NCBI GenBank assembly: GCA_020356105.1 | Contig: CP070634.1 | Location: 3,611,353 to 3,675,352 of the forward strand | Direction: 5' to 3' | From: Rhodospirillales bacterium | GTDB lineage: Bacteria > Pseudomonadota > Alphaproteobacteria > UBA8366 > JADFVY01 | DNA: 64,000 nucleotides | Shown here: piece after piece, positions 64-12,453 of the stretch | Layout: the number at the start of each line of letters is the position of its first letter | Position numbering within the stretch: position 1 is the first letter of the stretch | Position numbers and translations under genes: made by a program | The notes under the pieces: generated by a model | The model's input: the letters and a program-made list of their open reading frames with translations, nothing else | The model's database searches: none | Told to the model about the DNA's origin: nothing

Positions 64-2034
64 CTATTCGCCAAGTCCCATCTGGATATAGCCGCTGGGG
101 CAGACATCCTCGCAGATATGGCAACCGATGCACTTGTTGTAGTCGGTGTCGACATAGCGACCCATCGTGGTCTTGGCTTTGTTGACGCGGAAGATCGCGT
201 CCTGCGGACAATAGATGACACAGTTGTCGCATTCGAAGCACATGCCGCAGCTCATGCAGCGGTCGGCCTCGGCTTTCGCCTCTTCCTCGGTGAATCCGTG
301 AATGCGCTCCTCGAAATGGCCCAGCACGTCTTCCGGACCGATATGTTTCTCCTTGCGCTTGTGTCGGGCCTCGTACTTCCAGTGGCCGAGGAACAATTCG
401 TCGGCCGGGACGATCTCGACGAAGGATCGGTCCTCGTAATTGTGGATCGCGAAATTCTCGTGGTCGGTGCCGCGAACCTGCTCGTGGCTGTACGGCTCCG
501 GCTCGAGATGGGCCTCCTGCAGCTTCGCCAGCAGATCGAAGTGGTGCTTGTCGACCTTGGGACGCCGCGCCGGCTCCTTGCCGGACAGGAAATGATCGAT
601 GCCCTCGGCGGCGATCGAGGCATGGCCGATGGCGGTCGTCAGCAGATGCGGCTTGACGATGTCGCCGCCGACGAAGAAGTCCTTCTTGTCCGCCGCGCGG
701 TAGAAGGAGTCCGGGTTGATCAGGCCGCGGCCGTTGTCGAGATCCTCCATGCCGGTCAGATCGCCGGACTGGCCGATGGCGGCGACGATCAGGTCGCACT
801 CGATGTCGAATTCTGGTGTGTCCTTGACCGTCATGTTGTTGCCTTCCCACTCGACCTCCTGCACGCGGAGCGCCGTGGCGCGGCCGTCCTCGCCGACGAC
901 GACCGAGACCGGCGCCAGCGAACTGCGGATCTTTACGCCCTCCTGGCGCACATGCTCGATCTCCATCTTCGCCGCCGGCATCTTCTCGACCGGCCGCCGG
1001 TAGACGATCGTCACATCCGCACCCTCACGGTTGGCGACCGTGGCGACATCGTGCGCCGTGTGGCCCAGCACGACCATTTCCGGGCGGTCGCGCTCGCGCT
1101 CCTGCGTGATATGGCCGAGCCGCCGGGCGACCGCCGCGACATCCATCGCGGTGTCGCCACCGCCGATCACCAGCACGTTCTTGGCGCTGTGCTTCAGACG
1201 GCCGTCGTTGAACGCCTCGAGGAAGGCGATGCCGCTGATGACGTTGGGCGCGTCACCGCCGGGGACGGGGAGGGCCTGGCCGCTCTGCGCGCCCACGCCG
1301 ACGAAGAACGCATCGAATTCCTTTTTGAGGTCTTCGACCGATACGTCGACGCCGATCTTGGTGTTCATGCGCGTCTCGACGCCCATGTCGAGGATGCGCT
1401 GGATCTCGCCGTCCAGCACCTCGCGGGGCGTGCGGTAGCCCGGGATGCCATAGCGCATCATGCCGCCCAACTCTTCATGCGTATCGAAGATCGTCACGCC
1501 GTGTCCCATGCGGCGGAGCTGATACGCCGCCGCCAGGCTGGCCGGGCCGCCACCGATGCAGGCCACCTTCTTGCCGGTATCCGGGCCGGGCTCGCGCAGC
1601 TTCAGGCCGTGCTGCAGGGCGTAGTCACCGATATACTGCTCGACCGCGTTGATGCCGACATGGTCCTCCACCTCGTTGCGGTTGCAGCCGTCCTCGCAGG
1701 GCGCCGGGCAAACCCGACCCATGATCGCCGGCATCGGGTTGGAATCGGTCAGCCGGTAGAACGCGTATTCCTGCCAGTTCATGCCCTCCGGCGGCTTCTC
1801 GATGCCGCGCGCGATATTGAGCCAGCCGCGGATATCCTCGCCCGACGGACAGCTTCCCTGGCAGGGCGGCGTCCGATGCACATAGGTCGGACATTTGTGC
1901 GACTCGTCCGCAACGAAGATTTCCTCCTGCCAGGGCCGGTGCTCGTGGTCGCCGTCCTTGAACCGGCGAAACGTCAGTTTGGTTTCGTCCATGTCGTGCT
2001 TTTCCTGATCCTGATTGCCCTGCGAGCCGTCCAT
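64..2034 (-). CDS. dsrL: DsrL, NAD(P)H:acceptor oxidoreductase (glutamate-synthase small-subunit-like with ferredoxin domain)
   Basis: 656-aa ORF with dinucleotide-binding motifs VACIGGGPASLAAAY and VLVIGGGDTAMD. The C-terminus carries Fe-S motifs CMSCGMCFECDNC and CIGCHICEDVCP. It follows dsrK as in the Allochromatium dsr operon. Confidence 0.85.
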   Translation of the reverse strand: MDGSQGNQDQEKHDMDETKLTFRRFKDGDHEHRPWQEEIFVADESHKCPTYVHRTPPCQGSCPSGEDIRGWLNIARGIEKPPEGMNWQEYAFYRLTDSNPMPAIMGRVCPAPCEDGCNRNEVEDHVGINAVEQYIGDYALQHGLKLREPGPDTGKKVACIGGGPASLAAAYQLRRMGHGVTIFDTHEELGGMMRYGIPGYRTPREVLDGEIQRILDMGVETRMNTKIGVDVSVEDLKKEFDAFFVGVGAQSGQALPVPGGDAPNVISGIAFLEAFNDGRLKHSAKNVLVIGGGDTAMDVAAVARRLGHITQERERDRPEMVVLGHTAHDVATVANREGADVTIVYRRPVEKMPAAKMEIEHVRQEGVKIRSSLAPVSVVVGEDGRATALRVQEVEWEGNNMTVKDTPEFDIECDLIVAAIGQSGDLTGMEDLDNGRGLINPDSFYRAADKKDFFVGGDIVKPHLLTTAIGHASIAAEGIDHFLSGKEPARRPKVDKHHFDLLAKLQEAHLEPEPYSHEQVRGTDHENFAIHNYEDRSFVEIVPADELFLGHWKYEARHKRKEKHIGPEDVLGHFEERIHGFTEEEAKAEADRCMSCGMCFECDNCVIYCPQDAIFRVNKAKTTMGRYVDTDYNKCIGCHICEDVCPSGYIQMGLGE

Positions 2035-2040
2035 GGCGTG

Positions 2041-3588
2041 CTATTCCTCCGTCTCGGTCGGCGCGGCGCCGGCCTTTGTTTCGTCGTCGTCCTCGTCAGT
2101 GGTCTGGCCGTCGAGGATGATTGCGTTGCTCACCAGCTGGTGCAGGCTGACCACCCGGTCCATGCCCATGCCGTACTCCGGAAACACCTTGGAAAACTGG
2201 CTCTTGCAGATCGCGCAGATCGCGATCATGTGGGTGACCCCGTCGGTCTGGACGACCTGGTTCAGCGCGTCCATGCGGGGCTTCGCCCCCTTGACGCGCA
2301 ATTCCATAAGATCGTCGGTCAGCAGCCCGCCGCCGCCGCCGCAGCAATAGGTGCCCTCGCGGATCGAATCCGGGGCCATGTCCACGAAGTTGTTGCACAC
2401 CGCCCGGGCGATCGCTCGGGGAATCTCGAACTGTCCGCCCGGCACGCCGCCCATCCGCGTTGCGCGGGCAACGTTGCACGAATCGTGGAAGGTCAGCGTC
2501 ATGTCGTCGTTTGCCGACTTGTCGAACTTCAGGGCGCCCTTCTGGATGAGGTCGTATGTGAACTCGCAGATATGCTGCGGGATCGGATACTTCTGATCGA
2601 GGAAATCCCATGGACCGGCGAGGGTGTTCAGGAAGCTGTAGGCGACGCGCCAGGCGTGGCCGCACTCGCCGAACACCAGCCGTTTGACGCCGAGATCGAG
2701 CGCCGCCTTGCGGATCCGCAGGGCAATCTCCCGCATCTGTTCGTAGGAGCCGATGAACATGGCAAAGTTGGCGGCTTCCGAGGCATACGAGCTGATCGTC
2801 CAGCTGACCCCCGCCTGATGGAAGACCTTGGCATAGCCCATCAGCCCGTCGACATGCGGCTCGGCGAAGAAATCCGCGCTCGGCGTAACCAGCAGGATCT
2901 CGGCGCCCTTCTCGTCGAGCGGCAGTCGGACCTTGACGCCGGTCTCGTCCTCGATGTCCTCTTCAAGGCCCTCCAGCGTATCGGCGAGGGCCGGCCCGGG
3001 TAGGCCCAAATTGTTGCCGATCGTATGAACCTTGCCGATGATCTCGTTGCAATATTTCTGGCCCTTGCCGATATGATCCATGATATCGCGCGCCGCCATC
3101 GACAGCTCGGCCGTGTCGATACCGTAGGGGCAGTAGACCGAGCAGCGTCGGCACTGCGAGCACTGGTGGAAATAGCTGTACCAGTCGTCGAGCACTTCTT
3201 CGGTCAGGTCCTCGGCGCCGACCAGCCAAGGCAGCCATTTGCCGGCGAAGGTGAAGTGCCGGCGATAGACCTTGCGCATCAGATCCTGGCGCGCCACCGG
3301 CATGTTCTTTGGATCGCCGGTGCCGAGGAAATAATGGCACTTGTCGGTGCAGGCGCCGCAGCGCACGCAGGAATCGAGGTAAACCCTGAGCGCGCGGGAC
3401 TTGTCCAGGAGTTCGCCGAAGCGGGCGATCGCTCTGTCGTGCCAGTCCTCGACCAGTTCGCCCGGGAAGCCGAGCGGCTCCTGGTGCTCCGGTGCCGCCA
3501 GATAAGGATGCGAATGCGACATCGCCCCTTCCTGCAGCGCCGGAATCTCGGTGAACTCGGTCAGCTCGGGAACCTTGTAATCGCCCAT
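2041..3588 (-). CDS. dsrK: DsrK, HdrD-like Fe-S catalytic subunit of the DsrMK(JOP) complex
   Basis: Fe-S motifs CVRCGACTDKC and CSQCRRCSVYCP, plus a CCG-type C-terminal region (YCCGGGGG). I trimmed the start to ATG 3588 (MGDYKVPELTEF), 1 nt after the dsrM stop. The upstream 36 codons of the track ORF overlap dsrM. Confidence 0.85.
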   Translation of the reverse strand: MGDYKVPELTEFTEIPALQEGAMSHSHPYLAAPEHQEPLGFPGELVEDWHDRAIARFGELLDKSRALRVYLDSCVRCGACTDKCHYFLGTGDPKNMPVARQDLMRKVYRRHFTFAGKWLPWLVGAEDLTEEVLDDWYSYFHQCSQCRRCSVYCPYGIDTAELSMAARDIMDHIGKGQKYCNEIIGKVHTIGNNLGLPGPALADTLEGLEEDIEDETGVKVRLPLDEKGAEILLVTPSADFFAEPHVDGLMGYAKVFHQAGVSWTISSYASEAANFAMFIGSYEQMREIALRIRKAALDLGVKRLVFGECGHAWRVAYSFLNTLAGPWDFLDQKYPIPQHICEFTYDLIQKGALKFDKSANDDMTLTFHDSCNVARATRMGGVPGGQFEIPRAIARAVCNNFVDMAPDSIREGTYCCGGGGGLLTDDLMELRVKGAKPRMDALNQVVQTDGVTHMIAICAICKSQFSKVFPEYGMGMDRVVSLHQLVSNAIILDGQTTDEDDDETKAGAAPTETEE

Positions 3589-3589
3589 G

Positions 3590-4327
3590 CTATTCGCCCC
3601 TAGCCTCGAGCTTCGCGGCCCACGACGCGAGGTGGCGCTTCTCGCGGGCGCTGTCGACCTGGTTGCGGGTCGGGCTGAAGAACAGCCCCGGCGCATGCAG
3701 CAGCTTCGAGAAGGGGAACACCGTCATCAGCACGATGACCAGGCCGAGATGCACCGCCAGGACCGGATCGGTCGGCATCGGCTGCCAGTCGAACCGCATC
3801 AGCCCGATAATGAATTGCTTGAGCGCAACGATATCGGTTCGCGCAACGTAGCGCATGACGAGGCCGCTCGCCGTGATGCCGAGCAGCAAGGCCAGCATCA
3901 GATGGTCCGACGGTCCGCTGATATACCGGATTCTCTCGACGAGGACTCGCCGCAACCACAGCGCGCCGAGCCCCGCCAGCATGGCGAAGCCGGCATAGGT
4001 GCCGAAGGGCTGCACCAGGACGACCCAGCTCCAGACCGGCTCGGTAAAGTAACGCAGATGGCGCAGCATCGCGAGCAGCAGCGCGGCATGGAACATCCAG
4101 CCGAACAGCCAGATCCATTTGTTCGATTTGAACAGACTCTCGAACAGCACGACCTCGCGGACAAGCCGCATGGCGACGCCGCCTCTGGTCAGCGGCGCCG
4201 GCATGGTGGGGATCTTCAGGGGCGCCGGCGTGCGCCAGTACTGGACGATTTTGCGCAGCAACCCATAGATCAGCCACGCGGTTGCCGCATAGAAACCGAC
4301 AGTGAAGATCGCGGTCAGCACGGCCAT
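3590..4327 (-). CDS. dsrM: DsrM, NarI/HdrE-like membrane heme-b subunit
   Basis: 245-aa polytopic hydrophobic protein (several predicted helices with conserved His). It sits between dsrC and dsrK. Confidence 0.8.
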   Translation of the reverse strand: MAVLTAIFTVGFYAATAWLIYGLLRKIVQYWRTPAPLKIPTMPAPLTRGGVAMRLVREVVLFESLFKSNKWIWLFGWMFHAALLLAMLRHLRYFTEPVWSWVVLVQPFGTYAGFAMLAGLGALWLRRVLVERIRYISGPSDHLMLALLLGITASGLVMRYVARTDIVALKQFIIGLMRFDWQPMPTDPVLAVHLGLVIVLMTVFPFSKLLHAPGLFFSPTRNQVDSAREKRHLASWAAKLEARGE

Positions 4328-4390
4328 GATCCCCCATTGCCCCGGCCAGTTACGGCCGACCGGGGCGCTTCAGTTCATCAGTCCAGCGCG

Positions 4391-4723
4391 TCAGATGCAG
4401 CCGGTCGGCTTCGGCAGTCCGGCAATCTTGCAGGCCTGCTTGGCCGGGCCGTATGGGAACAGCTCATAGAGATACTTGCTGTTGCCCTTCTCCGGGCCCA
4501 TCGTCTTCTTGACGGCCTTCGTCAGGACGCGAATGGCGGGCGCGATCTGATACTCCTCGTAGTACTCGCGCAGGAAGTTGACGACCTCCCAGTGGTCGTC
4601 GGTCATATCGATATTCTCGTCCTCGGCGATCAGTTCCGCGAGCTCGCGGGACCACTGGCTGATATCCTTGATATAGCCTTCCTCGTCCGCCTCGAATGTC
4701 TGGCCGTTCAACTGGTAAGCCAT
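4391..4723 (-). CDS. dsrC: DsrC, sulfur-carrier/substrate protein of DsrAB
   Basis: 110 aa of the DsrC/TusE family. The diagnostic flexible C-terminus ...AKQACKIAGLPKPTGCI carries both conserved cysteines. Confidence 0.9.
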   Translation of the reverse strand: MAYQLNGQTFEADEEGYIKDISQWSRELAELIAEDENIDMTDDHWEVVNFLREYYEEYQIAPAIRVLTKAVKKTMGPEKGNSKYLYELFPYGPAKQACKIAGLPKPTGCI

Positions 4724-4783: not shown

Positions 4784-5086
4784 TTAGAGCCACGCCTGTT
4801 GCGCCTCGTGTTCGGCCACGAGGTCGACGAATCCGCCGTAGTCGACGACCTCTATGCCATCGATCAGCGGAGCTTCGCTCAAGCCCCGGGCCGCCACGTC
4901 GGGCCCCAGGACGTAAAACTTGAAATCGTTCATGCGGGCGGCCACCGCGTCGGCGGCGCGGGTGCCGCGCAGCGCGCCGTAGACGCCGTCCTCGATCAGC
5001 AGAATCGCACTGCCGGCCTTGGCCAGGCGCATGCAGCTCTCCAGCGTATTTCTCTCGAGCGGAGATTTGTTCACCGTGTGCAGCAT
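4784..5086 (-). CDS. dsrH: DsrH (TusB-like) sulfur relay subunit
   Basis: 100-aa small protein of DsrH/TusB size and style (MLHTVNKSP...LLIEDGVY). It lies after dsrF and before dsrC. Confidence 0.8.
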   Translation of the reverse strand: MLHTVNKSPLERNTLESCMRLAKAGSAILLIEDGVYGALRGTRAADAVAARMNDFKFYVLGPDVAARGLSEAPLIDGIEVVDYGGFVDLVAEHEAQQAWL

Positions 5087-5097
5087 GCCGGTCTTCC

Positions 5098-5487
5098 TTA
5101 TGCGCTGATCACAACGTCCTGCGCGGCCATGATCTCGCGCAGCTCGTCGGTGCTCAGAATCTCCACCTCGACCACCAAATCGTCCGCCGTCAGCCCGCGG
5201 GCTTCAAGCGATTCCTTCTCAAAATAGAGTTTCTCGACATCGTAACCCTCCAGCGCGCGGAAGGTCGGCGAGAAATTCTTCATGTTGATGCCGGTCGTAT
5301 CCTGCCCCTTGGTCAACTGGAACACGCCGTCATCGAGGAACACGACGCTGACATCCTGGTCGAACGCCGCCGAGATCAGCACCGTTTCCAAGGACTCAAG
5401 TGCATAGATCGTCCCGTAGGGTGCCTTGCGGTTCACATACATGAACCGTTTGATGGCCTCCGGTTCGAAATCGTCGTCTTCCATCAT
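5098..5487 (-). CDS. dsrF: DsrF (TusC-like) sulfur relay subunit
   Basis: I trimmed the start to ATGATG at 5487 (MMEDDDFEPEAIKRFMYVNRKAPYG...). The remaining N-terminal 69 aa of the 198-aa track ORF are Arg-rich read-through overlapping dsrE. Confidence 0.8.
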   Translation of the reverse strand: MMEDDDFEPEAIKRFMYVNRKAPYGTIYALESLETVLISAAFDQDVSVVFLDDGVFQLTKGQDTTGINMKNFSPTFRALEGYDVEKLYFEKESLEARGLTADDLVVEVEILSTDELREIMAAQDVVISA

Positions 5488-5522
5488 CGCCGCTGTCCGT
5501 TCCCTGTCCGCATGTCCACCCG

Positions 5523-5882
5523 TCAGTCGCCGAACACGACCAGACGGTCGCTGACGATCCCGGCCTCGATCAGCTGGCCGAGACCGGAAATCCGGAAGCC
5601 GGGGGCGAGGATATCGTCCTTGATGCCCCGCCGCAGCGCGGCGGCGACGCAGACCACGAGGTCGACGCCGTGCTCTTCTCCCAGCTTGCCCCACAGCTCC
5701 ACCAGATTGCGGTCGTCCGCCTGCGGCTCGGAGAGCTTGTTCGCGTTGTTGACGCCGTCATGGTAGAAGAACACGCGCATGATCTCGTGTCCCTTCTCCA
5801 GCGCCGCCTTGGCGAACTGGTAGGCCGAATCCGACGCCTGATGCGTGAACGGGCCCTCATTCACCAAAATTCCGAACTTCAT
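5523..5882 (-). CDS. dsrE: DsrE (TusD-like) sulfur relay subunit
   Basis: 119 aa. MKFGILVNEGPFTHQASDSAYQFA... is typical DsrE/TusD, with the conserved Cys region DLVVCVAAA. Confidence 0.85.
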   Translation of the reverse strand: MKFGILVNEGPFTHQASDSAYQFAKAALEKGHEIMRVFFYHDGVNNANKLSEPQADDRNLVELWGKLGEEHGVDLVVCVAAALRRGIKDDILAPGFRISGLGQLIEAGIVSDRLVVFGD

Positions 5883-5914
5883 CTCCCTTATGCCTCCTGG
5901 CGCGCGTGCACGCC

Positions 5915-6994
5915 CTAGAAGTGGACGTGCGCCGACGCGTTCAGGCTGCGCCGCGCGCCGCGCCAGTCATCGATATGATGCCGGGTGAACGCAAGGTCGG
6001 TCATCTCGAAGAAACGCGGCCAGCCGATCCGTTCAATCCACTCGCCCATGCGCTCCCACGGGCGGCCATCCTCCTTGTAGGCGTAGAGGATCTTCTTGAC
6101 GATCTCGGCGGCCTCCGGCCAGCGCGGCGGGTTGTTCGGGATGCCGGCCGCGACCAGCTTGTGGAAGGTCGGCTTCGAGCGGGCATTCGAATGCTTGCCG
6201 CCCACCCAGATCGCCAGCTTGGTCGACTCCTCGCTGTTGATCTGCATCGGTGGGCAGGGCGGATAACAGGCGCCGCAGCAGATGCATTTCTTCTCATCCA
6301 CCTCCAGCGACGGCTTGCCGTCGACCAGCGCCGGGCGGATCGCCGCCACCGGACAGCGCGCCACGACGGCCGGTCGCTCGCAGACATTGGCGACGAGATC
6401 GTGGTTGATCTTCGGCGGCTTGGTGTACTGCACGTTGATCGCGATATCCCCCTGGCCGCCGCAGTTGATCTGGCAGCAGGAGGTGGTGAGGCGAACGCGG
6501 TTCGGCATCTCCTCATGCTTGAAGTCGTGATAGATCTCGTCCATCAACGCCTTCACGACGCCCGACGCATCGGTGCCGGGAATGTCGCAATGTAGCCAGC
6601 CCTGGGTGTGTGAGATCATCGACACCGAGTTGCCGGTGCCGCCGACCGGGAAGCCCTCCGATTCGAGCTTTTCGATCAGCGGCGCGACCTTGGACTCCTC
6701 GCTGACCATGAACTCGCAGTTGGAGCGCACGGTGAACCTGACATGGCTCTCGGCGTATTCGTCGGCGATGTCGCAGAGCTTGCGAATGGTGTGGATGTCC
6801 ATCTGCCGCTGCGTGCCGGCGCGGACCGTCCATACCGTATCGCCACTGTGCGAGACATGGCGCAGGACGCCCGGGCGGGGCCGGTCGTGCCATTTCCAGT
6901 TGCCGTAATTCTTCTTCAGCACCGGATGCATATGGGGGAAGGGATCCGGGACGCCGCTCTCGACGGGACGCCGCGGTTGTGTTGCCTGATTCAT
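5915..6994 (-). CDS. dsrB: Dissimilatory sulfite reductase beta subunit
   Basis: 359 aa with the siroheme/Fe-S region TSCCQINCGG and a ferredoxin insert (CICCGACYPPCP). It lies directly after dsrA. Confidence 0.9.
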   Translation of the reverse strand: MNQATQPRRPVESGVPDPFPHMHPVLKKNYGNWKWHDRPRPGVLRHVSHSGDTVWTVRAGTQRQMDIHTIRKLCDIADEYAESHVRFTVRSNCEFMVSEESKVAPLIEKLESEGFPVGGTGNSVSMISHTQGWLHCDIPGTDASGVVKALMDEIYHDFKHEEMPNRVRLTTSCCQINCGGQGDIAINVQYTKPPKINHDLVANVCERPAVVARCPVAAIRPALVDGKPSLEVDEKKCICCGACYPPCPPMQINSEESTKLAIWVGGKHSNARSKPTFHKLVAAGIPNNPPRWPEAAEIVKKILYAYKEDGRPWERMGEWIERIGWPRFFEMTDLAFTRHHIDDWRGARRSLNASAHVHF

Positions 6995-7041
6995 AATTCG
7001 AATTCCCGTTCTCTATCTCGAAGCGCGTGCGGTAGGGCGGC

Positions 7042-8316
7042 CTATTCGGCCGCCTCCGCCGAGCCCTTCTTCTCCGCCTTGTGGCGATACCACTTGTCGG
7101 CCTCTTCGTCCCAGTCGTCGGTGCGGACATAGGACGAGGTGCGCGGATGGCTGATCATGTTCGGGTTGACCTCGACGCCGATCGCCTCGAGGAAGTTGGC
7201 GAGCCCGATGCGGTCGATCGTCTCGCCGACCCGCTCATGCTCGAGCGCGTTCTCGGCGAAGAAGTCGATGACCGTCTCGGCGAGCTCGGTCAGCGCCTCG
7301 TAGTCCTCGTCGGTCTCCAGCTTGAAGAACGGAACGACCACGGTGCCCATCAAATCGCCGATCTTCAGCGAGCGCTTGCCGCCGATCAGGATCGTTGCGC
7401 CGCGCTCGTCGCCCGGCGACAGCGCCTTGGTCATCACGTTCAGGCAGTGCATGCAGCGCACGCAGCTCTTGTTGTCGACCTCGAGCGTATCGTCGTCGTT
7501 GAGGCTGAGCGCCCGGGTCGGGCACATCGAGATGACCTGGTCGATCATATGCTTGCGGCCGTTCTTCTTGACGAAGGCCTTCACCTCGTCCTGGTCGACC
7601 TTCATGTCGTCCTTCCAGGTGCCGATCACAGCGAAATCGGAGCGGTGGATCGCGTTCGAGCAGTCATTCGGGCAGCCGGAAAACTTGAACTTGAACTTGT
7701 AGGGCAGCGCGGGCCGATGCATCTCGTCGAGGAACTCGTTGATGATGCGGCGGTGCGCCTTTACCTCGTCGTAGCAGGACTGCTCGCAACGGGCATGACC
7801 GACGCAGGCGACCGAGGTCCTGAGCGCCGGGCCGGCGCCGCCCAGATCGAGGCCGATGTCCTCACTGTTCAGCTCGTCGAACGCCTTCTGCACGTTTTCG
7901 GTGGTGGCGCCCTGGAACATTATGTCGCCGCTCTGCCCGTGCAGCGCGATCAGGCCCGAGCCGTGCTTCTCCCACACGTCGCACATCTTGCGCAGCAGGT
8001 TCGTCGAGTAATGCATGCCCGAGGGCGGCTGCACGCGCAGCGTATGGAACTCCTTCGACTCCGGATAATCTTCCGCGACTTCCGAGAAGCGCGGAATGAT
8101 GCCGCCGCCGTAACCGAAGACGCTGACCGTGCCGCCTTTCCAGTAGCCCAGCTTGGTCTTGTAGGAATGCTCGAGCTGGCCGAGAAGGTCCTTCATCATG
8201 TTGGCATAAGGCTTGTCATCATCCTTTGCCAGCCGCTTCAGACCGGTCACGAAGCTCGGCCACGGTCCGGACTCCAGCTCGTCCAGCAACGGCGTGTCAT
8301 GCATCTTCTTGGTCAT
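7042..8316 (-). CDS. dsrA: Dissimilatory sulfite reductase alpha subunit
   Basis: 424 aa with motifs ACVGHARCEQSC and FSGCPNDCSNA, plus a ferredoxin domain (CVRCMHCLNV). GGAGGA lies 6 nt upstream of the ATG. Confidence 0.9.
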   Translation of the reverse strand: MTKKMHDTPLLDELESGPWPSFVTGLKRLAKDDDKPYANMMKDLLGQLEHSYKTKLGYWKGGTVSVFGYGGGIIPRFSEVAEDYPESKEFHTLRVQPPSGMHYSTNLLRKMCDVWEKHGSGLIALHGQSGDIMFQGATTENVQKAFDELNSEDIGLDLGGAGPALRTSVACVGHARCEQSCYDEVKAHRRIINEFLDEMHRPALPYKFKFKFSGCPNDCSNAIHRSDFAVIGTWKDDMKVDQDEVKAFVKKNGRKHMIDQVISMCPTRALSLNDDDTLEVDNKSCVRCMHCLNVMTKALSPGDERGATILIGGKRSLKIGDLMGTVVVPFFKLETDEDYEALTELAETVIDFFAENALEHERVGETIDRIGLANFLEAIGVEVNPNMISHPRTSSYVRTDDWDEEADKWYRHKAEKKGSAEAAE

Positions 8317-8609
8317 GGACTTTCCTCCAAAATTCCCTCTTCATTTACCCGTTTGCCGCCACGGGCCCGAAACTCTCTACTACTTTCGAGCAAAGCATTC
8401 CAGCATCCGAACGACCAATCTGGAATTCCCCACTCTTATATGCGAAACTTATCATATTCGAGAACGCGTACCTGAATCCAGCAGAATTGTTGTCTGGAGA
8501 TTTGCACGGCCCAATTTTCTGAATCGACGGCCAAAAAAGGTGTTGTGGTCCGGACCATACCCGGCCTGGATGCGTCACTGCAACCGTCCTCAGAATTCGG
8601 TTTGGAAAC
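8317..8609. promoter_or_regulatory. Divergent promoter region between dsrA and the TauD-like/cysG unit
   Basis: 293-nt non-coding spacer between divergent starts, visibly less GC-rich than the flanks (e.g. ctcttatatgcgaaacttatcatattcgag). No specific operator recognised. Confidence 0.4.
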
Positions 8610-9575
8610 ATGGCACAGAATACACCAGCACAGGATAAAAGATACGTGCGAGATGAAGGTCGAACGGTTGTGCAGAGCGGTGGTCCGTTCGACCTTGCCG
8701 ACGCCGACGCCTACCGGCGCTGGCGTGACCGCAAGTTGGCGTCGCGGGTCGCCGATCCGGCTGAGCTGCTGGTCGAACTCTCGTTGCTCGCGGCGCCGAC
8801 GGAGGCGGAGCGCGCAGCGATCCTCGCGCTCTGCCGGCGCGCCAACATGGCGATTTATGCCGGCCCGGTGCTTGAGCCCACCGCGGCAAAGAAGGCCGTT
8901 GCCGCGCTCGGTGCAGCGCTTGGACTGCATCGTCTCGACCGCAATCTGTGCGCCGAGGAGGACGGCATCTCCGCGCTTGAGGTGCGGGCCGGGAGCGGAG
9001 CGGGCGAGTACGTTCCATACACCGACCGGTCGCTCAGCTGGCATACCGACGGCTATTACAACAGTGATGCCGAGCAGGTCCGCGGCGTCATCCTGCATTG
9101 CGTGCGCGCGGCCTCGGACGGTGGCGGCAACGCGCTGATGGATCCGGAGATCGCCTATATCCGTCTGCGCGACGAGGATCCCGCCTTCATCGCCGCGCTG
9201 ATGCATCCCGAGGCGATGACGATCCCGGCCAACACGCTGAGCGGCACCGAGATCCGTCCGGCCCGAATCGGGCCGGTGTTCTCGGTCGACCCGGCGAGCG
9301 GTGCCCTGCACATGCGCTATTCGGCGCGCAAGGTGAATGTGGTATGGCGGGACGATGCGGTGACGCGTGCGGCGGTCGACTTCCTCAATGCGCTGCTGGT
9401 CGCTGACGGCCCGGACATACATCATTGGCGTCTGCGGCCGGGTGAGGGCTATATCTCCAACAACGTGCTGCACAACCGCACCGCGTTCGAAGACGCGCCG
9501 CGACCGGATGCGGGACGGCTGGTCTATCGGGCGCGCTATTTCGACAGGATCGAGGGAACCGAACCGTGCCGATGA
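8610..9575 (+). CDS. TauD/TfdA-family Fe(II)/2-oxoglutarate dioxygenase-like protein
   Basis: 321 aa. It has an HxD motif in SLSWHTDGYY, a distal His/Arg region (VLHNRTAFEDA...YRARY), and overall TauD-like length. Confidence 0.7.
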   Translation: MAQNTPAQDKRYVRDEGRTVVQSGGPFDLADADAYRRWRDRKLASRVADPAELLVELSLLAAPTEAERAAILALCRRANMAIYAGPVLEPTAAKKAVAALGAALGLHRLDRNLCAEEDGISALEVRAGSGAGEYVPYTDRSLSWHTDGYYNSDAEQVRGVILHCVRAASDGGGNALMDPEIAYIRLRDEDPAFIAALMHPEAMTIPANTLSGTEIRPARIGPVFSVDPASGALHMRYSARKVNVVWRDDAVTRAAVDFLNALLVADGPDIHHWRLRPGEGYISNNVLHNRTAFEDAPRPDAGRLVYRARYFDRIEGTEPCR

Positions 9576-9763
9576 TAAATCTGAGCCAGATCATCATTAC
9601 CAATCCGCAGGTCAAGTCATTCAAGCAACTGCTCGAGGTGGTCGAGCAGGAGGCGAAACACGGCACCTTGCACCTGCAGTTCGACGTCAAGCCGGACTAC
9701 CGCGATACGCCGCGCAATTGGGAATTCCTGATCGAGGCGGCATTCTATCGGGGGCAGCCGTGA
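9572..9763 (+). CDS. Small hypothetical protein (63 aa)
   Basis: ATG 9572 overlaps the upstream TGA (ATGA); an alternative GTG lies at 9566. The ORF MINLSQIIITNPQVKSFKQLLEVVEQEAKHGTLHLQFDVKPDYRDTPRNWEFLIEAAFYRGQP has lower GC than its neighbours. No family recognised. Confidence 0.4.
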   Translation: MINLSQIIITNPQVKSFKQLLEVVEQEAKHGTLHLQFDVKPDYRDTPRNWEFLIEAAFYRGQP

Positions 9764-9975
9764 GTGGCGAGACGGTCACCCCGCTGGAGCGCTTTCCGGC
9801 GCCTTGGAACAAGGAGGTGACGCTGCAGGCGGTGCTGCACGACAGCGGGCTGCGCATGCTGCGGATCCGCATCAAGGAAGGCACGCGCTTTACCGTGATG
9901 GACGTCGACGAGGACACTGCGCGGCGCTGGGGCCGGGCGATGGTCGACTGGGCCGGCGACGGCGCCGCGGGCTAG
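9760..9975 (+). CDS. Small hypothetical protein (71 aa)
   Basis: GTG 9760 overlaps the upstream TGA (GTGA). The ORF begins VSGETVTPLERFPAPWNKEVTLQAVLHDSGLRMLRIRIKEGTRFTVMDVDEDTARRWGRAM... and ends 16 nt before cysG. No family recognised. Confidence 0.4.
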   Translation: MSGETVTPLERFPAPWNKEVTLQAVLHDSGLRMLRIRIKEGTRFTVMDVDEDTARRWGRAMVDWAGDGAAG

Positions 9976-9991
9976 GAGGCGAGAGGGAGCG

Positions 9992-11422
9992 ATGGATCTT
10001 CTGCCGCTATTCCAGGACGTCAAGGGCCGGGCGGTGCTGGTGGTCGGCGGAGGCACGGCGGCCGCCCGCAAGGCCGAGCTGGTGTCGCGGGCCGGCGCCA
10101 GGGTCATGGTGATCGCGCCCGCGCTGAGCGACGACATGGCGAGGCTAGCCGGCGAGCGCGGCTTCGTGCATCGCACGGATTCGGTCGGGGCGGGGGATCT
10201 TGCCGGCTGCGCGCTGGTATTCGCGGCGTCGGAAGACATGGCGCTGAACGAACGGGTCCACGAGCTCGCTGTCACGGCGGGTGTGCCGGTCAACGTTGTC
10301 GACCGGCCCGAGCTGTGCCAGTTCATCATGCCGGCGATCCTCGACCGCGACGGCGTCGTGGTGGCGGTGTCCTCCGGCGGCGACGCGCCGCTGCTGACCC
10401 GCATGATGAAGGCCCGGTTCGAAACCCTGGTTCCGGCGGCCTACGGACGTCTGGCGCGTTTCGGCGGCGCCTGGCGGGACCGGGTCAAGGCGGCGATCTC
10501 CGACAGCGACCTGCGCCGCCGCGTCGGGGACATGGTAGTCGAGGGGCCGGTCGCCGAGCGGGTTTTCTCCGGCCGCGACTCCGAGGCCGCCCACGCCATG
10601 GAAGCGCAGCTGGAGGAGGCGGCCGGCCGGGCCGCGCGCGGGCCGGTGGGCGAGGTCTGGCTGGTCGGGGCGGGGCCGGGCGATCCGGACCTGCTGACTT
10701 TCCGGGCGCTGCGGCTGATGCAGCAGGCCGAGATCGTGCTCTACGACCGGCTGATCGGCAACGGAATCCTCAACCTCGTGCGGCGCGACGCCGAGCGCAT
10801 CTATGTCGGCAAGGCGGCGAAGAACCACACCGTGCCGCAGGACGAGATCGGCCGCATGCTGGTACGCCTCGCACGGGAGGGCAAGCGGGTGCTGCGCCTC
10901 AAGGGCGGCGATCCGTTCATCTTCGGGCGCGGCGGCGAGGAGATCGAGATGCTGGCGGCCGAGGGCATTCCGTTCCAGGTCGTGCCCGGCATTACCGCGG
11001 CGAGCGGCTGCGCCTCTTATGCCGGCATTCCGCTGACCCATCGCGACCACGCCCAGGCCTGCGTCTTCGTGACCGGCCATGGCAAGGACGAGAAGCTCGG
11101 CATCGACTGGCCGGCCCTGATCCGCCCGAACCAGACGATCGTCATTTATATGGGGCTGACGATGCTGCCGCGTCTCATCAGTGAGTATCTCGAACATGGC
11201 GGCCGGCCGGACATGCCGGCAGCGATCGTCGAGAAGGGCACCCAGCCGGATCAGCGCGTCGTCACCGGCGCGATCGGGGATCTGCCGGCGCTGGCCGAGG
11301 CGGCCGGGCTCGGCCCGCCGTCGCTGATCATCATCGGCAGCGTCGTCACCCTGCGCCGCGATCTTGCCTGGTACGAGAGCGCCGCGGAAGCCGCGGCGGA
11401 CGCGGAACCGGAGACCACCTGA
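9992..11422 (+). CDS. cysG: Siroheme synthase (precorrin-2 dehydrogenase/ferrochelatase + uroporphyrinogen-III C-methyltransferase)
   Basis: 476 aa. The N-terminus has an NAD fold (VLVVGGGTAAARKA). The C-terminus has SUMT motifs (VWLVGAGPGDPDLLT, LKGGDPFIFGRGGEE). Confidence 0.9.
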   Translation: MDLLPLFQDVKGRAVLVVGGGTAAARKAELVSRAGARVMVIAPALSDDMARLAGERGFVHRTDSVGAGDLAGCALVFAASEDMALNERVHELAVTAGVPVNVVDRPELCQFIMPAILDRDGVVVAVSSGGDAPLLTRMMKARFETLVPAAYGRLARFGGAWRDRVKAAISDSDLRRRVGDMVVEGPVAERVFSGRDSEAAHAMEAQLEEAAGRAARGPVGEVWLVGAGPGDPDLLTFRALRLMQQAEIVLYDRLIGNGILNLVRRDAERIYVGKAAKNHTVPQDEIGRMLVRLAREGKRVLRLKGGDPFIFGRGGEEIEMLAAEGIPFQVVPGITAASGCASYAGIPLTHRDHAQACVFVTGHGKDEKLGIDWPALIRPNQTIVIYMGLTMLPRLISEYLEHGGRPDMPAAIVEKGTQPDQRVVTGAIGDLPALAEAAGLGPPSLIIIGSVVTLRRDLAWYESAAEAAADAEPETT

Positions 11423-11547
11423 CCGGCGGATGCCGCGGCAGCGATTCGCGTAACCTCATGCCAAGCGCCAACCGCAACGGCCCGCTTGCCCGCCGGTGGC
11501 TGCCATGCTCCTATGGTCAGCGACCTACATCGGCGGAGGGTGGCCCC

Positions 11548-12453
11548 ATGTTTGAAGACTTCGAGCGCACCGAGATCGCGGTGCCCGACCGCGGCTTCGG
11601 CCCGGCGACGATTCATCTAAGGCACGGCGGCAGCGGGCCGCCGCTGCTGCTGCTGCACGGCAACCCGATGACTCATGTCGCCTGGCACAAGATCGCCGGC
11701 GATCTGGCCAAAAACTTCCACGTGGTGGCGGCGGATCTGCGCGGCTACGGCGACAGTGTCGGGCCGGAGGAGGGCGGTGCCGATCACGTCAACTATTCCT
11801 TCCGCGCCATGGCGCAGGACCAGGTCGACGTGATGGAGGCGCTCGGCTTCGAGACGTTCCAGGCGGCCGGCCACGACCGTGGCGCGCGCACGGTGCACCG
11901 CATGTGCCTCGACCATGAAGGGCGCATCGAGCGGGCGGCGGTGGTCGACATCCTCCCGAACCGCCATATCTGGAACAACGTCTCGAAGGACTGGGCGGTC
12001 AAGTCGTGGCACTGGCTGTTTATGGCCCAACCCTACGACATGCCGGAGCGGATGATGGCCGGCGTACCGCCGCGCTATTATATGGAAAAGAAGCTCTCGA
12101 AGAAGGGTATCGGCCTGGCCCCCTTCACGCCGGAGGCGTTCGACGAGTACGTCCGCTGCTTCAACTGGAAGACGATCCGCGGCTCCTGCGAGGATTACCG
12201 CGCCTGCGTGACCTCGGATTTGGCGATGGACGAGGCCGACTACGCCGAGGGCAAGCGGGTGACCTGCCCGCTCCTGGCCGTCTGGGGCGCGCGCAGCCAC
12301 ACCGGCACGGTCTATGGCGACGTGCGGGCGATCTGGCAGGACTATGCCGCGGCACCGGTCCAGGGTGGGCCGATCGATTGCGGCCATTACGTCCCCGAGG
12401 AGGAGCCGGAGGAGACCCGAAACTGGTTCCTCGAGTTCTTCCAGGCCGGCTGA
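11548..12453 (+). CDS. Alpha/beta hydrolase, haloacetate (fluoroacetate) dehalogenase-like
   Basis: Start at ATG 11548 (GGAGGG upstream). Motifs HGNPMTHVAWHKI, the nucleophile region AGHDRGARTV and the cap region WHWLFMAQPYD are typical of the haloacetate dehalogenase H-1 / epoxide-hydrolase-like subfamily. Confidence 0.75.
   Translation: MFEDFERTEIAVPDRGFGPATIHLRHGGSGPPLLLLHGNPMTHVAWHKIAGDLAKNFHVVAADLRGYGDSVGPEEGGADHVNYSFRAMAQDQVDVMEALGFETFQAAGHDRGARTVHRMCLDHEGRIERAAVVDILPNRHIWNNVSKDWAVKSWHWLFMAQPYDMPERMMAGVPPRYYMEKKLSKKGIGLAPFTPEAFDEYVRCFNWKTIRGSCEDYRACVTSDLAMDEADYAEGKRVTCPLLAVWGARSHTGTVYGDVRAIWQDYAAAPVQGGPIDCGHYVPEEEPEETRNWFLEFFQAG

Follow-up and report, generated by a model that had tools for sequence, protein, structure and literature searches.

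The reverse, or oxidative, dissimilatory sulfite reductase (rDsr) pathway is one of the main bacterial routes of sulfur oxidation, and none of its accessory genes is more widespread in aerobic oxidisers than dsrQ. The name was coined by Lenk et al. 2012 for the tauD-like gene upstream of dsrA (as related in PMC7596348 and PMC9371685), and in the passages of the latter two papers that deal with it, the reports of dsrQ come chiefly from sulfur oxidisers that are aerobic or facultatively so, including members of the Roseobacter clade and the Hyphomicrobiales. A role for DsrQ in the release of sulfite from sulfonates is raised in the relevant section of Loeffler et al. 2020 (PMC7596348) purely as speculation, and the same speculation accompanies MHY1_00078, a TauD/DsrQ protein of Methylovirgula thiovorans HY1 in the corresponding section of Gwak et al. 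2022 (PMC9371685). That section also describes a DsrC-like protein without CysA, MHY1_00075, encoded three genes from MHY1_00078, and the CysA-lacking DsrC-like proteins of strain HY1 are viewed there as probable regulators (RpsA). Hausmann et al., where they mention DsrQ, place it among proteins of unknown function. The present analysis concerns a dsrQ gene, and the genes coupled to it, within a 64,000-nucleotide stretch of DNA (the window) from a Rhodospirillales metagenome-assembled genome (MAG; locus tags JSU82_).

In the window, dsrQ is followed by genes for two small proteins, of 63 and 71 amino acids (aa), referred to here as S63 and the DUF6967 protein, and then by the siroheme synthase gene cysG. 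On balance, this group appears to be an accessory operon of the oxidative (reverse) Dsr cluster of an aerobic Rhodospirillales bacterium, supplying a putative O2-dependent hydroxylase with two small partners and co-expressed with the cofactor supply of DsrAB. The features are arranged as follows, with lengths of DNA in nucleotides (nt):

8317-8609, no strand: spacer between dsrA and dsrQ, 293 nt, low GC, divergent control region
8610-9575, plus strand: dsrQ, 321 aa, Fe(II)/2-oxoglutarate dioxygenase of the TauD/TfdA superfamily
9572-9763, plus strand: S63 gene, 63 aa, ATGA overlap with dsrQ, no Pfam or NCBIfam family
9760-9975, plus strand: DUF6967 gene, 71 aa, GTGA overlap with the S63 gene, Pfam PF22295
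9992-11422, plus strand: cysG, 476 aa, trifunctional siroheme synthase, closing the unit

The four genes form one packed unit, divergent from dsrA over the 293-nt control region. The stop codon of dsrQ (TGA, 9573-9575) is overlapped by the S63 start (ATG 9572), the S63 stop (TGA, 9761-9763) is overlapped by the DUF6967 start (GTG 9760), and cysG starts at 9992, 16 nt past the DUF6967 stop (TAG, 9973-9975); a terminator scan found no terminator-like site between 8610 and 11422. An earlier interpretation made from the letters of the window alone (the sequence-only reading) had described these junctions, the coordinates, the lower-GC spacer, and a 321-aa TauD/TfdA-type open reading frame (ORF) with an HxD motif, and all of these were recovered from the ORF list, the sequence, and Pfam. 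Its proposal of a four-gene unit sharing a regulatory region with dsr likewise stands, given the overlapping junctions, the absence of an internal terminator-like site, and the recurrence of the layout in 55 of 84 related loci. The unit appears to end at cysG because the genes downstream (encoding an alpha/beta hydrolase, a CHRD protein, a PepSY_TM protein, and GSTs) look unrelated, and because in one related locus, L090, a different gene follows cysG. CysG itself matches NF007922 with 602.7 bits (cut-off 400; 4.6e-181), and its Pfam domains NAD_binding_7, CysG_dimeriser, and TP_methylase account for the dehydrogenase/chelatase, dimerisation, and methylase parts.

In GenBank, dsrQ is annotated 12 codons shorter (309 aa; window 8610-8645 affected) and the DUF6967 gene 6 codons longer (77 aa; window 9742-9759 affected), and the starts kept among relatives are ATG 8610 for dsrQ and 9760 for the DUF6967 gene, whose close homologues (n=44) share a common start position. 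The two small proteins are deposited as UCH74077.1 ('hypothetical protein JSU82_17465', S63) and UCH76250.1 ('hypothetical protein', DUF6967 protein).

The evidence that these genes belong together comes from related genomes. A scan with the S63 alignment, taking one genome per species, gave 150 relatives, of which 80 loci were kept; four other loci brought the set to 84, in which layouts were called by tblastn with the window proteins. The S63 gene lies directly downstream of dsrQ in 83 of the 84 loci, the contig of the remaining locus starting inside the region upstream of S63, and the DUF6967 gene follows S63 in 78, with cysG present in 64. The layouts are distributed as follows (a double-headed arrow marks divergent genes):

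dsrHFEBA <-> dsrQ-S63-DUF6967-cysG: 55 loci
dsrHFEBA <-> dsrQ-S63-DUF6967, no cysG: 14 loci
dsrQ-S63-DUF6967-cysG, no dsrA: 8 loci
dsrA <-> dsrQ-S63 only: 3 loci
dsrQ-S63 only: 3 loci
contig starting at S63: 1 locus

The position directly upstream of, and divergent from, dsrA is kept by dsrQ in 72 of the 84 loci, which fits the definition of the gene. Exceptions to the full layout are mostly contigs that end early: of the eight loci that lack dsrA, six are of this kind and two are Rhodobium, and the layouts confined to dsrQ-S63 represent one Rhodospirillaceae lineage (L001 and L002, with dsrA; L003, L004, and L016, cut inside dsrQ). The S63/DUF6967 junction is an overlap in most loci (-4, -11, -8, or -1 nt), and the dsrQ/S63 junction overlaps or abuts in about half, with 10-185 nt in the others, a pattern that fits stoichiometric co-production of the predicted proteins. 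Carriers of the operon belong to the Rhodobacterales, Hyphomicrobiales, Rhodospirillales, Kiloniellales, and Sneathiellales, together with MAGs labelled Gammaproteobacteria or Lysobacterales; cultured examples are Ruegeria marina, R. marisflavi, R. aquimaris, Aliiruegeria lutimaris, and Tropicimonas in the Rhodobacterales and Rhodobium orientis in the Hyphomicrobiales. Sampling that began from dsrQ instead of S63 also recovered an S63 homologue after dsrQ, in L085 (Thiohalobacter thiocyanaticus), L086 and its near-duplicate L087, L089, and L090. The last of these has an operon of the window's kind (alpha-type) with cysG; in L085, L086, and L089 (gamma-type), dsrQ and S63 are accompanied by a Cas6-like gene and, after it, a DsrC-like gene.

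Such a layout lies far beyond chance: dozens of species keep both small ORFs at the protein level, with frame and gene order unchanged. It was precisely co-occurrence of the trio beside dsrA or cysG that the sequence-only reading had proposed as a check. Its suggestion of a dsr-associated accessory module outside the set dsrABEFHCMKLJOPNRS is supported by these data, although the dioxygenase was already named dsrQ. Apparent dsrQ-S63 fusions in L037, L049, and L079 were rejected, each resolving into a stop followed by a GTG start or into a change of frame. One metagenomic protein of 153 aa, P0255, consists of an S63-like half and then a DUF6967-like half; its C-terminal part looks frameshifted and may be an assembly artefact, so that it was not counted as evidence of fusion.

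Because the two small ORFs are short, and S63 has no Pfam or NCBIfam family and a GC content below that of its neighbours, they might be taken for chance ORFs in a long spacer between dsrQ and cysG. Comparative genomics refutes this reading and leaves it with a negligible chance of being correct. Frame, length, and start are kept down to about 50% identity for S63 and about 30% for the DUF6967 protein, across orders; GC at third codon positions (GC3) is 0.80-0.92 in the two ORFs; and synonymous changes far outnumber non-synonymous ones, the S63 codon differences from close relatives standing at 18:5, 15:6, and 29:7, as under purifying selection. Both products also yield confident AlphaFold 2 (AF2) models, and both are present in GenBank. 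Codon-level comparison in this way identifies S63 and DUF6967 as real protein genes under purifying selection. The lower GC and codon style that had been remarked on for S63 are real in so far as its GC dips to 0.56; they do not, however, indicate an unusual origin, because GC at the three codon positions (GC1/GC2/GC3 = 0.58/0.30/0.80) traces the dip to amino-acid composition, and a foreign origin was rejected on the same figures (GC3 0.80, GC2 0.30).

The sequence-only reading recognised neither small protein, and for S63 that verdict holds: no match was found in Pfam or NCBIfam, and PDB sequence searches with S63 and the DUF6967 protein returned nothing under E = 0.18. The S63 homologues (n=40) are 63-75 aa long and 50-92% identical, and they share the invariant motif FDVKP-x3-DTP-x-NW-x4-E-x-AFY-x-G; cysteine is absent from S63 and from all 20 aligned homologues. 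A profile search of 1.84 billion representative proteins gave 120 clusters (at 50% identity), almost all of them stand-alone proteins of 40-110 aa; P0205, P0209, P0219, and P0269 were rejected as homologues, being repeat- or TPR-like proteins in which a short part of the profile matched many times. The best AF2 model, with a predicted local distance difference test score (pLDDT) of 91.9, consists of a strand, two helices, a strand, a long ordered loop, and a helix. The loop (residues 38-51) is modelled confidently and carries the invariant K, P, D, T, N, and W, and Foldseek found nothing in the PDB for this model with E below 2.8. By these searches, S63 is a small-protein family without a database model, unnamed or mis-named 'DsrC' in GenBank. 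NCBI calls the homologues MCK5620836.1, MBE9557231.1, MCK4868304.1, and MBT5110007.1 'sulfur relay protein DsrC', an annotation error that will propagate. DsrC/TusE shares with S63 only the genomic neighbourhood, DsrC-like genes lying downstream in some dsrQ operons, whereas the two differ in length (110 versus 63 aa) and in predicted fold, and S63 has neither a PF04358 match nor a cysteine; alignment of profiles (hhalign) against the window DsrC gave a probability of 0.4%, and S63 was rejected as DsrC. It was likewise rejected as a piece of DsrQ (hhalign probability 0.2%).

The 71-aa product, in contrast, is a member of Pfam DUF6967 (PF22295), matched over residues 4-66 of 71 with 103.6 bits (cut-off 27; 5e-30). 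Its AF2 model (pLDDT 92.2) predicts four beta strands followed by one helix, and its best fold matches in the PDB are PUR-alpha repeats (Foldseek probability 0.95-0.99; template modelling score 0.55-0.67), but at E values of 0.3-1.6. The PUR-alpha repeats of Drosophila (5fgo) and Borrelia (3nm7) have the same size and the same strand and helix topology as the model; their identity to the DUF6967 protein is, however, only 10-16%, with no sequence-level match, and the DUF6967 protein is not basic, its net charge counted from sequence being about -1.

The enzyme at the head of the operon, DsrQ, matches Pfam PF02668 (TauD) over residues 68-298 with 66 bits (cut-off 27; 6.5e-18). Its iron ligands, H145, D147, and H288 (HxD...H), do not vary across 22 homologues; DsrQ contains the motif SWHTDGYY, and WHTDGYYN (with H145 and D147) and NNVLHNR (with H288) are constant within this set. 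Nine arginines are also invariant, R303, R307, and R309 included, as is Y137, which aligns to Y194 of human gamma-butyrobetaine hydroxylase (BBOX1). R303 lies 15 residues past the distal histidine and is by position alone a candidate 2-oxoglutarate-binding arginine, the alignments to TmpA and BBOX1 stopping short of this region. The HTD triad and the distal histidine align with their equivalents in TmpA and BBOX1, the HTD ligands falling on H202 and D204 of BBOX1, and the same 22 homologues share an N-terminal motif peculiar to DsrQ, GPFD..AY..WR..KL.

Among solved structures, the nearest to DsrQ are TmpA (6npb; E 2.8e-8), DfmD (9j0j; E 5.8e-6), a 'predicted hydroxylase' (7n7v; E 6.3e-4), and BBOX1 (E 1.2e-3), and in NCBIfam only sub-threshold matches were obtained, to TmpA (40.3 bits), BBOX (27.1), and TMLH (31.6), against cut-offs of 400, 414.75, and 268.3. 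The clade of TmpA, DfmD, BBOX1, and TMLH, whose enzymes act on trimethylammonium compounds, shares with DsrQ the HxD...H iron site and an AYT...HTD motif and contains its nearest curated or solved relatives. It is nevertheless remote (E 3e-8 to 1e-3), and its members carry an N-terminal domain that DsrQ lacks, because the catalytic domain begins about 60-70 residues earlier in DsrQ than in TmpA and BBOX1, and the TauD domain is the only one that Pfam finds. E. coli TauD belongs to the same Pfam family, PF02668, and uses the same cofactor chemistry, but neither solved E. coli-type TauD nor AtsK nor TfdA matched DsrQ in the PDB at E <= 0.01, even with the 22-sequence profile, and the NCBIfam taurine dioxygenase model did not match DsrQ either. 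DsrQ is therefore best described as a predicted O2-requiring hydroxylase with a complete catalytic motif, on the TmpA/BBOX side of the superfamily and outside every characterised equivalog. The 'taurine dioxygenase' of JGI records is, on these matches, a superfamily label, and the TauD name misleading.

These relationships bear directly on the view, speculated on in the sections cited above of Loeffler et al. 2020 (PMC7596348) and Gwak et al. 2022 (PMC9371685), that DsrQ is a stand-alone TauD-type dioxygenase which frees sulfite from intracellular or ambient sulfonates, the small ORFs being incidental. DsrQ does belong to Pfam TauD, and TauE-type sulfite exporter genes are found near gamma-type dsrQ operons. 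TmpA hydroxylates the carbon adjoining a phosphonate, and chemistry of that type adjoining a sulfonate would free sulfite. Against this view stand the missing match to any solved or curated TauD enzyme described above, the lack of any obvious reason why a sulfonate scavenger should keep its place beside dsrA across more than 70 species and be translationally coupled to cysG and two conserved small proteins, and the fact that sulfite is already made by rDsr itself. The view is accordingly held to be distinctly unlikely, and a TauD-like sulfonate role does not follow from the sequence, the nearest relatives being TmpA, DfmD, TMLH, and gamma-butyrobetaine hydroxylase.

Under the preferred reading, an accessory operon of the rDsr cluster, DsrQ would act as an O2- and 2-oxoglutarate-dependent hydroxylase in complex with S63 and, in alpha-type operons, with the DUF6967 protein. 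A DsrQ-S63(-DUF6967) heteromer is suggested indirectly: genes for subunits of fixed stoichiometry typically lie strictly adjacent, with stop and start codons that overlap. The two small proteins would be dedicated partner or adaptor subunits and not sole substrates; adaptors are the likelier role because dsrQ occurs without S63 (L088 and L091) and without DUF6967 (gamma-type operons). The module would be induced together with dsr and made beside genes for cofactors or partners of DsrAB, namely cysG in the window and, in other loci, ApbC/Mrp, DsrN-like, or DsrC-like genes. The substrate of DsrQ should be common to all rDsr organisms. Ranked first is a metabolite that is small and charged, like the substrates of all characterised relatives; a sulfonate that yields sulfite would be one case. 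This is a fair prospect by analogy but short of probable. Second, and doubtful, comes a step in siroheme or DsrAB maturation, to which the neighbourhood, the order DsrN-like/dsrQ/cysG in Rhodobium, and the invariant arginines may point. A protein target (S63 or a DsrC-like protein) or an O2-sensing switch is ranked third and is unlikely; it draws on the invariant S63 loop and the PUR-like fold, on the DsrC-like and Cas6-like genes nearby, and on the divergence from dsrA.

Where cysG is missing, its place is taken by other genes. In the Rhodobacterales loci L017 (10430-11539), L033 (4696-5805), and L045 (8417-9526), a 369-aa ApbC/Mrp (NUBPL-type) P-loop Fe-S carrier ATPase follows DUF6967, and in the Hyphomicrobiales loci L025, L031, L075, and L078 a DsrC-like gene does so. 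In L017, genes for a Pyr_redox_2 protein and for sulfur transport (PF04143) come after the ApbC/Mrp gene. In the two Rhodobium loci (L024, a MAG, 5111-12001; L042, R. orientis DSM 11290, 204-4467), the dsrQ operon is not divergent from dsrA; the order on one strand is a DsrP-like gene (NrfD), a gene for a 459-aa Glycos_trans_3N protein, a DsrN-like gene (CobB/CobQ amidotransferase), dsrQ, S63, DUF6967, and cysG. Among gamma-type operons, L086 and L089 also have a gene for a 232-234-aa protein without a Pfam match before the Cas6-like gene and a rhodanese gene after the DsrC-like gene. The Cas6-like protein, of an RNA-binding fold, is about 230 aa long (PF09559, 9.6e-59) and is encoded at 7298-7987 in L085, 7865-8560 in L086, and 6920-7609 in L089, with no CRISPR genes among the called neighbours. 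Further 2-oxoglutarate-Fe(II) oxygenases (PF13640, prolyl-hydroxylase type) and TauE-type sulfite exporters are encoded within a few kb of gamma-type dsrQ, at the following positions:

L085: 9169-9843 and 12855-12945
L086: 10663-11337 and 11913-12524

This company raises a second alternative, in which DsrQ, S63, and the DUF6967 protein would, in the presence of O2, act on siroheme or its precursors or on DsrAB in its apo or holo form, through modification, insertion, or repair of the siroheme-[4Fe-4S] centre, with the small proteins as carriers or chaperones from CysG to DsrAB. The presence of cysG in 64 of the 84 loci, of the ApbC/Mrp Fe-S carrier in Rhodobacterales, and of COX15/CtaA in L088 would agree with such a module, as would the DsrN-like amidotransferase gene directly upstream of dsrQ in Rhodobium, since DsrN amidates siroheme; the nine invariant arginines of DsrQ would suit a polycarboxylate substrate. 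The arginine richness may, however, reflect high GC, siroheme demand alone explains cysG beside dsr, and gamma-type operons have no cofactor gene after S63, where Cas6-like, DsrC-like, and rhodanese genes are found instead. Moreover, we know of no TauD-superfamily enzyme that acts on a tetrapyrrole, so that the chemistry would be without known precedent. An assignment to cofactor supply or maturation as such is considered unlikely.

The shared control region and the small proteins invite a third alternative, O2-sensing regulation, in which O2-dependent hydroxylation by DsrQ would fall on the invariant S63 loop or on a DsrC-like protein, and the DUF6967 protein (alpha-type) or the Cas6-like and DsrC-like proteins (gamma-type) would bind nucleic acid and tune dsr expression. 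The operon faces away from its putative target across a control region common to both, the DUF6967 model is nearest to nucleic-acid-binding PUR-alpha repeats, and the S63 loop is confidently modelled and invariant. DsrC-like genes occur in gamma-type and Hyphomicrobiales operons, those of strain HY1 being the probable regulators RpsA in the section by Gwak and colleagues (PMC9371685), and the prevalence of dsrQ in aerobic or facultatively aerobic sulfur oxidisers, as described in that part of PMC7596348, is also in keeping with a response to O2. On the other side, the PUR likeness is weak (E 0.3-1.6) and a topology of four strands plus a helix is simple; a basic charge is lacking in the DUF6967 protein; L088 and L091 have dsrQ but no S63; and the Rhodobium genes lie at the end of the dsr operon and are not divergent from it. 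Hydroxylation of a folded protein would also lack known precedent in this family, no PF02668 member being known to us to carry it out. Such regulation is held to be quite unlikely, and is the least probable of the three alternative functions.

The control region itself (8317-8609) has a GC content of 0.46-0.51, compared with about 0.62-0.71 in the adjacent genes. An alignment of 9 intergenic regions revealed a block of about 60 base pairs at 8433-8495 (TATATGCG..ATCATATTCGAGAA..GAATCCAGCAGAATTGT) that hardly varies among the eight closest relatives, unlike the remainder of the spacer, which diverges; its pattern was matched in exactly 8 loci, and it is absent from more distant ones. The block is probably a shared promoter/operator. 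Promoter and terminator scans found no consensus sigma-70 site or terminator in the spacer, and its repeats are short matches at chance level. The possibility that the spacer or the operon holds a riboswitch or other structured RNA was rejected, an Rfam scan giving no match in the spacer and a single weak one (E = 0.21, far under the gathering score) inside dsrQ.

On the opposite strand, the region faces the dsr operon, whose genes lie outside the module and provide its context:

7042-8316, minus strand: dsrA, first gene of the oxidative-type dsr operon
5915-6994, minus strand: dsrB, from the ORF list, dsr operon
5523-5882, minus strand: dsrE, DsrE/DsrF-like Pfam match
within 5098-5694, minus strand: dsrF, DsrE/DsrF-like Pfam match
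4784-5086, minus strand: dsrH, dsr operon ORF
4391-4723, minus strand: dsrC, dsr operon ORF, 110 aa
3590-4327, minus strand: dsrM, DsrM-like Pfam match
2041-3696, minus strand: dsrK, DsrK-like Pfam match
64-2034, minus strand: dsrL, DsrL-like Pfam match

The presence of dsrEFH and dsrL in this operon suggests a cluster of the oxidative type, and DsrA and DsrB are 70-95% identical (tblastn) to those of more than 70 related loci.

Several observations weigh against the preferred reading. DsrQ bears only a weak likeness to characterised enzymes, with E no better than 1e-8 and 27-40 bits where the curated cut-offs are 268-415, and the five AF2 models of S63 spread over pLDDT 67-92, which makes the model less robust than its top score. 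Neither partner is universal, the DUF6967 gene being absent from the gamma-type operons. In L088 (5001-7236), the order is dsrQ-DUF6967-COX15/CtaA (heme A synthase), with no S63 within 5 kb, and a dsrQ-like gene of 47% identity and with the same N-terminal motif stands alone on plasmid pTfr153 of Thiothrix fructosivorans (L091, 6878-9667). No solid gene fusion was found among the operon proteins in the loci and clusters checked. The plasmid pTfr153 was the sole yield of the plasmid search and has neither S63 nor dsr near the dsrQ-like gene; its neighbours are serC, a 4-phosphoerythronate dehydrogenase gene, and a radical SAM gene, followed by an apparently frameshifted anaerobic ribonucleotide reductase gene, a 63-aa piece of which is annotated nrdD.

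A broader and more tentative proposal, which is somewhat doubtful, is that DsrQ, S63, and the DUF6967 protein together constitute an O2-dependent system for the siroheme enzyme rDsrAB and do not serve sulfonate scavenging: they would either chemically alter or restore, when O2 is present, the siroheme/Fe-S centre or a protein of the Dsr set, or serve as an O2-sensing hydroxylase switch on dsr expression. If so, S63 would represent a new family with a new fold, and its invariant loop a docking or target site. An O2-dependent device for maturation or control would also help to account for the functioning in air of an enzyme system that came from anaerobes. The function has only been narrowed, and the dsrQ operon offers a concrete route to the role of DsrQ, in which a 14-year-old guess ('TauD, perhaps sulfonates') gives way to specific, testable hypotheses. 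Among cultured strains, Ruegeria marina CGMCC 1.9108, Aliiruegeria lutimaris DSM 25294, and Rhodobium orientis DSM 11290 carry the operon and should be open to genetics. A further candidate is Methylovirgula thiovorans HY1, for which dsrQ is described in the section of PMC9371685 that treats it.

Compared with the dsrQ of the literature, a TauD-family gene divergent from dsrA of an oxidative-type cluster, the window gene fits exactly, and the identity of the dioxygenase as dsrQ has been known since 2012. In the parts of the cited papers that describe it, however, dsrQ is treated as a single gene, and the small downstream genes and the link to cysG are not mentioned. No literature mention of the small ORFs beside dsrQ was found, although the figures of Lenk et al. 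2012 may draw them as hypothetical ORFs, and no paper using the term 'DUF6967' was found. What is new is the two small partners, the link to cofactor and DsrC-type genes, and the placement of DsrQ beside TmpA/BBOX; dsrQ is almost never alone, having two dedicated small proteins that occur only beside it, the company of siroheme, Fe-S, and DsrC-type genes, and a position on a TmpA/BBOX-like branch. Small genes beside siroheme enzymes have a parallel in alphaproteobacterial assimilatory clusters of the order cysG-DUF2849-cysI-DUF934, in which short uncharacterised proteins are encoded between the siroheme synthase and the siroheme-dependent sulfite reductase. The families and the pathway differ, and, unlike in those clusters, the small genes described here are tied first to dsrQ and persist where cysG is absent.

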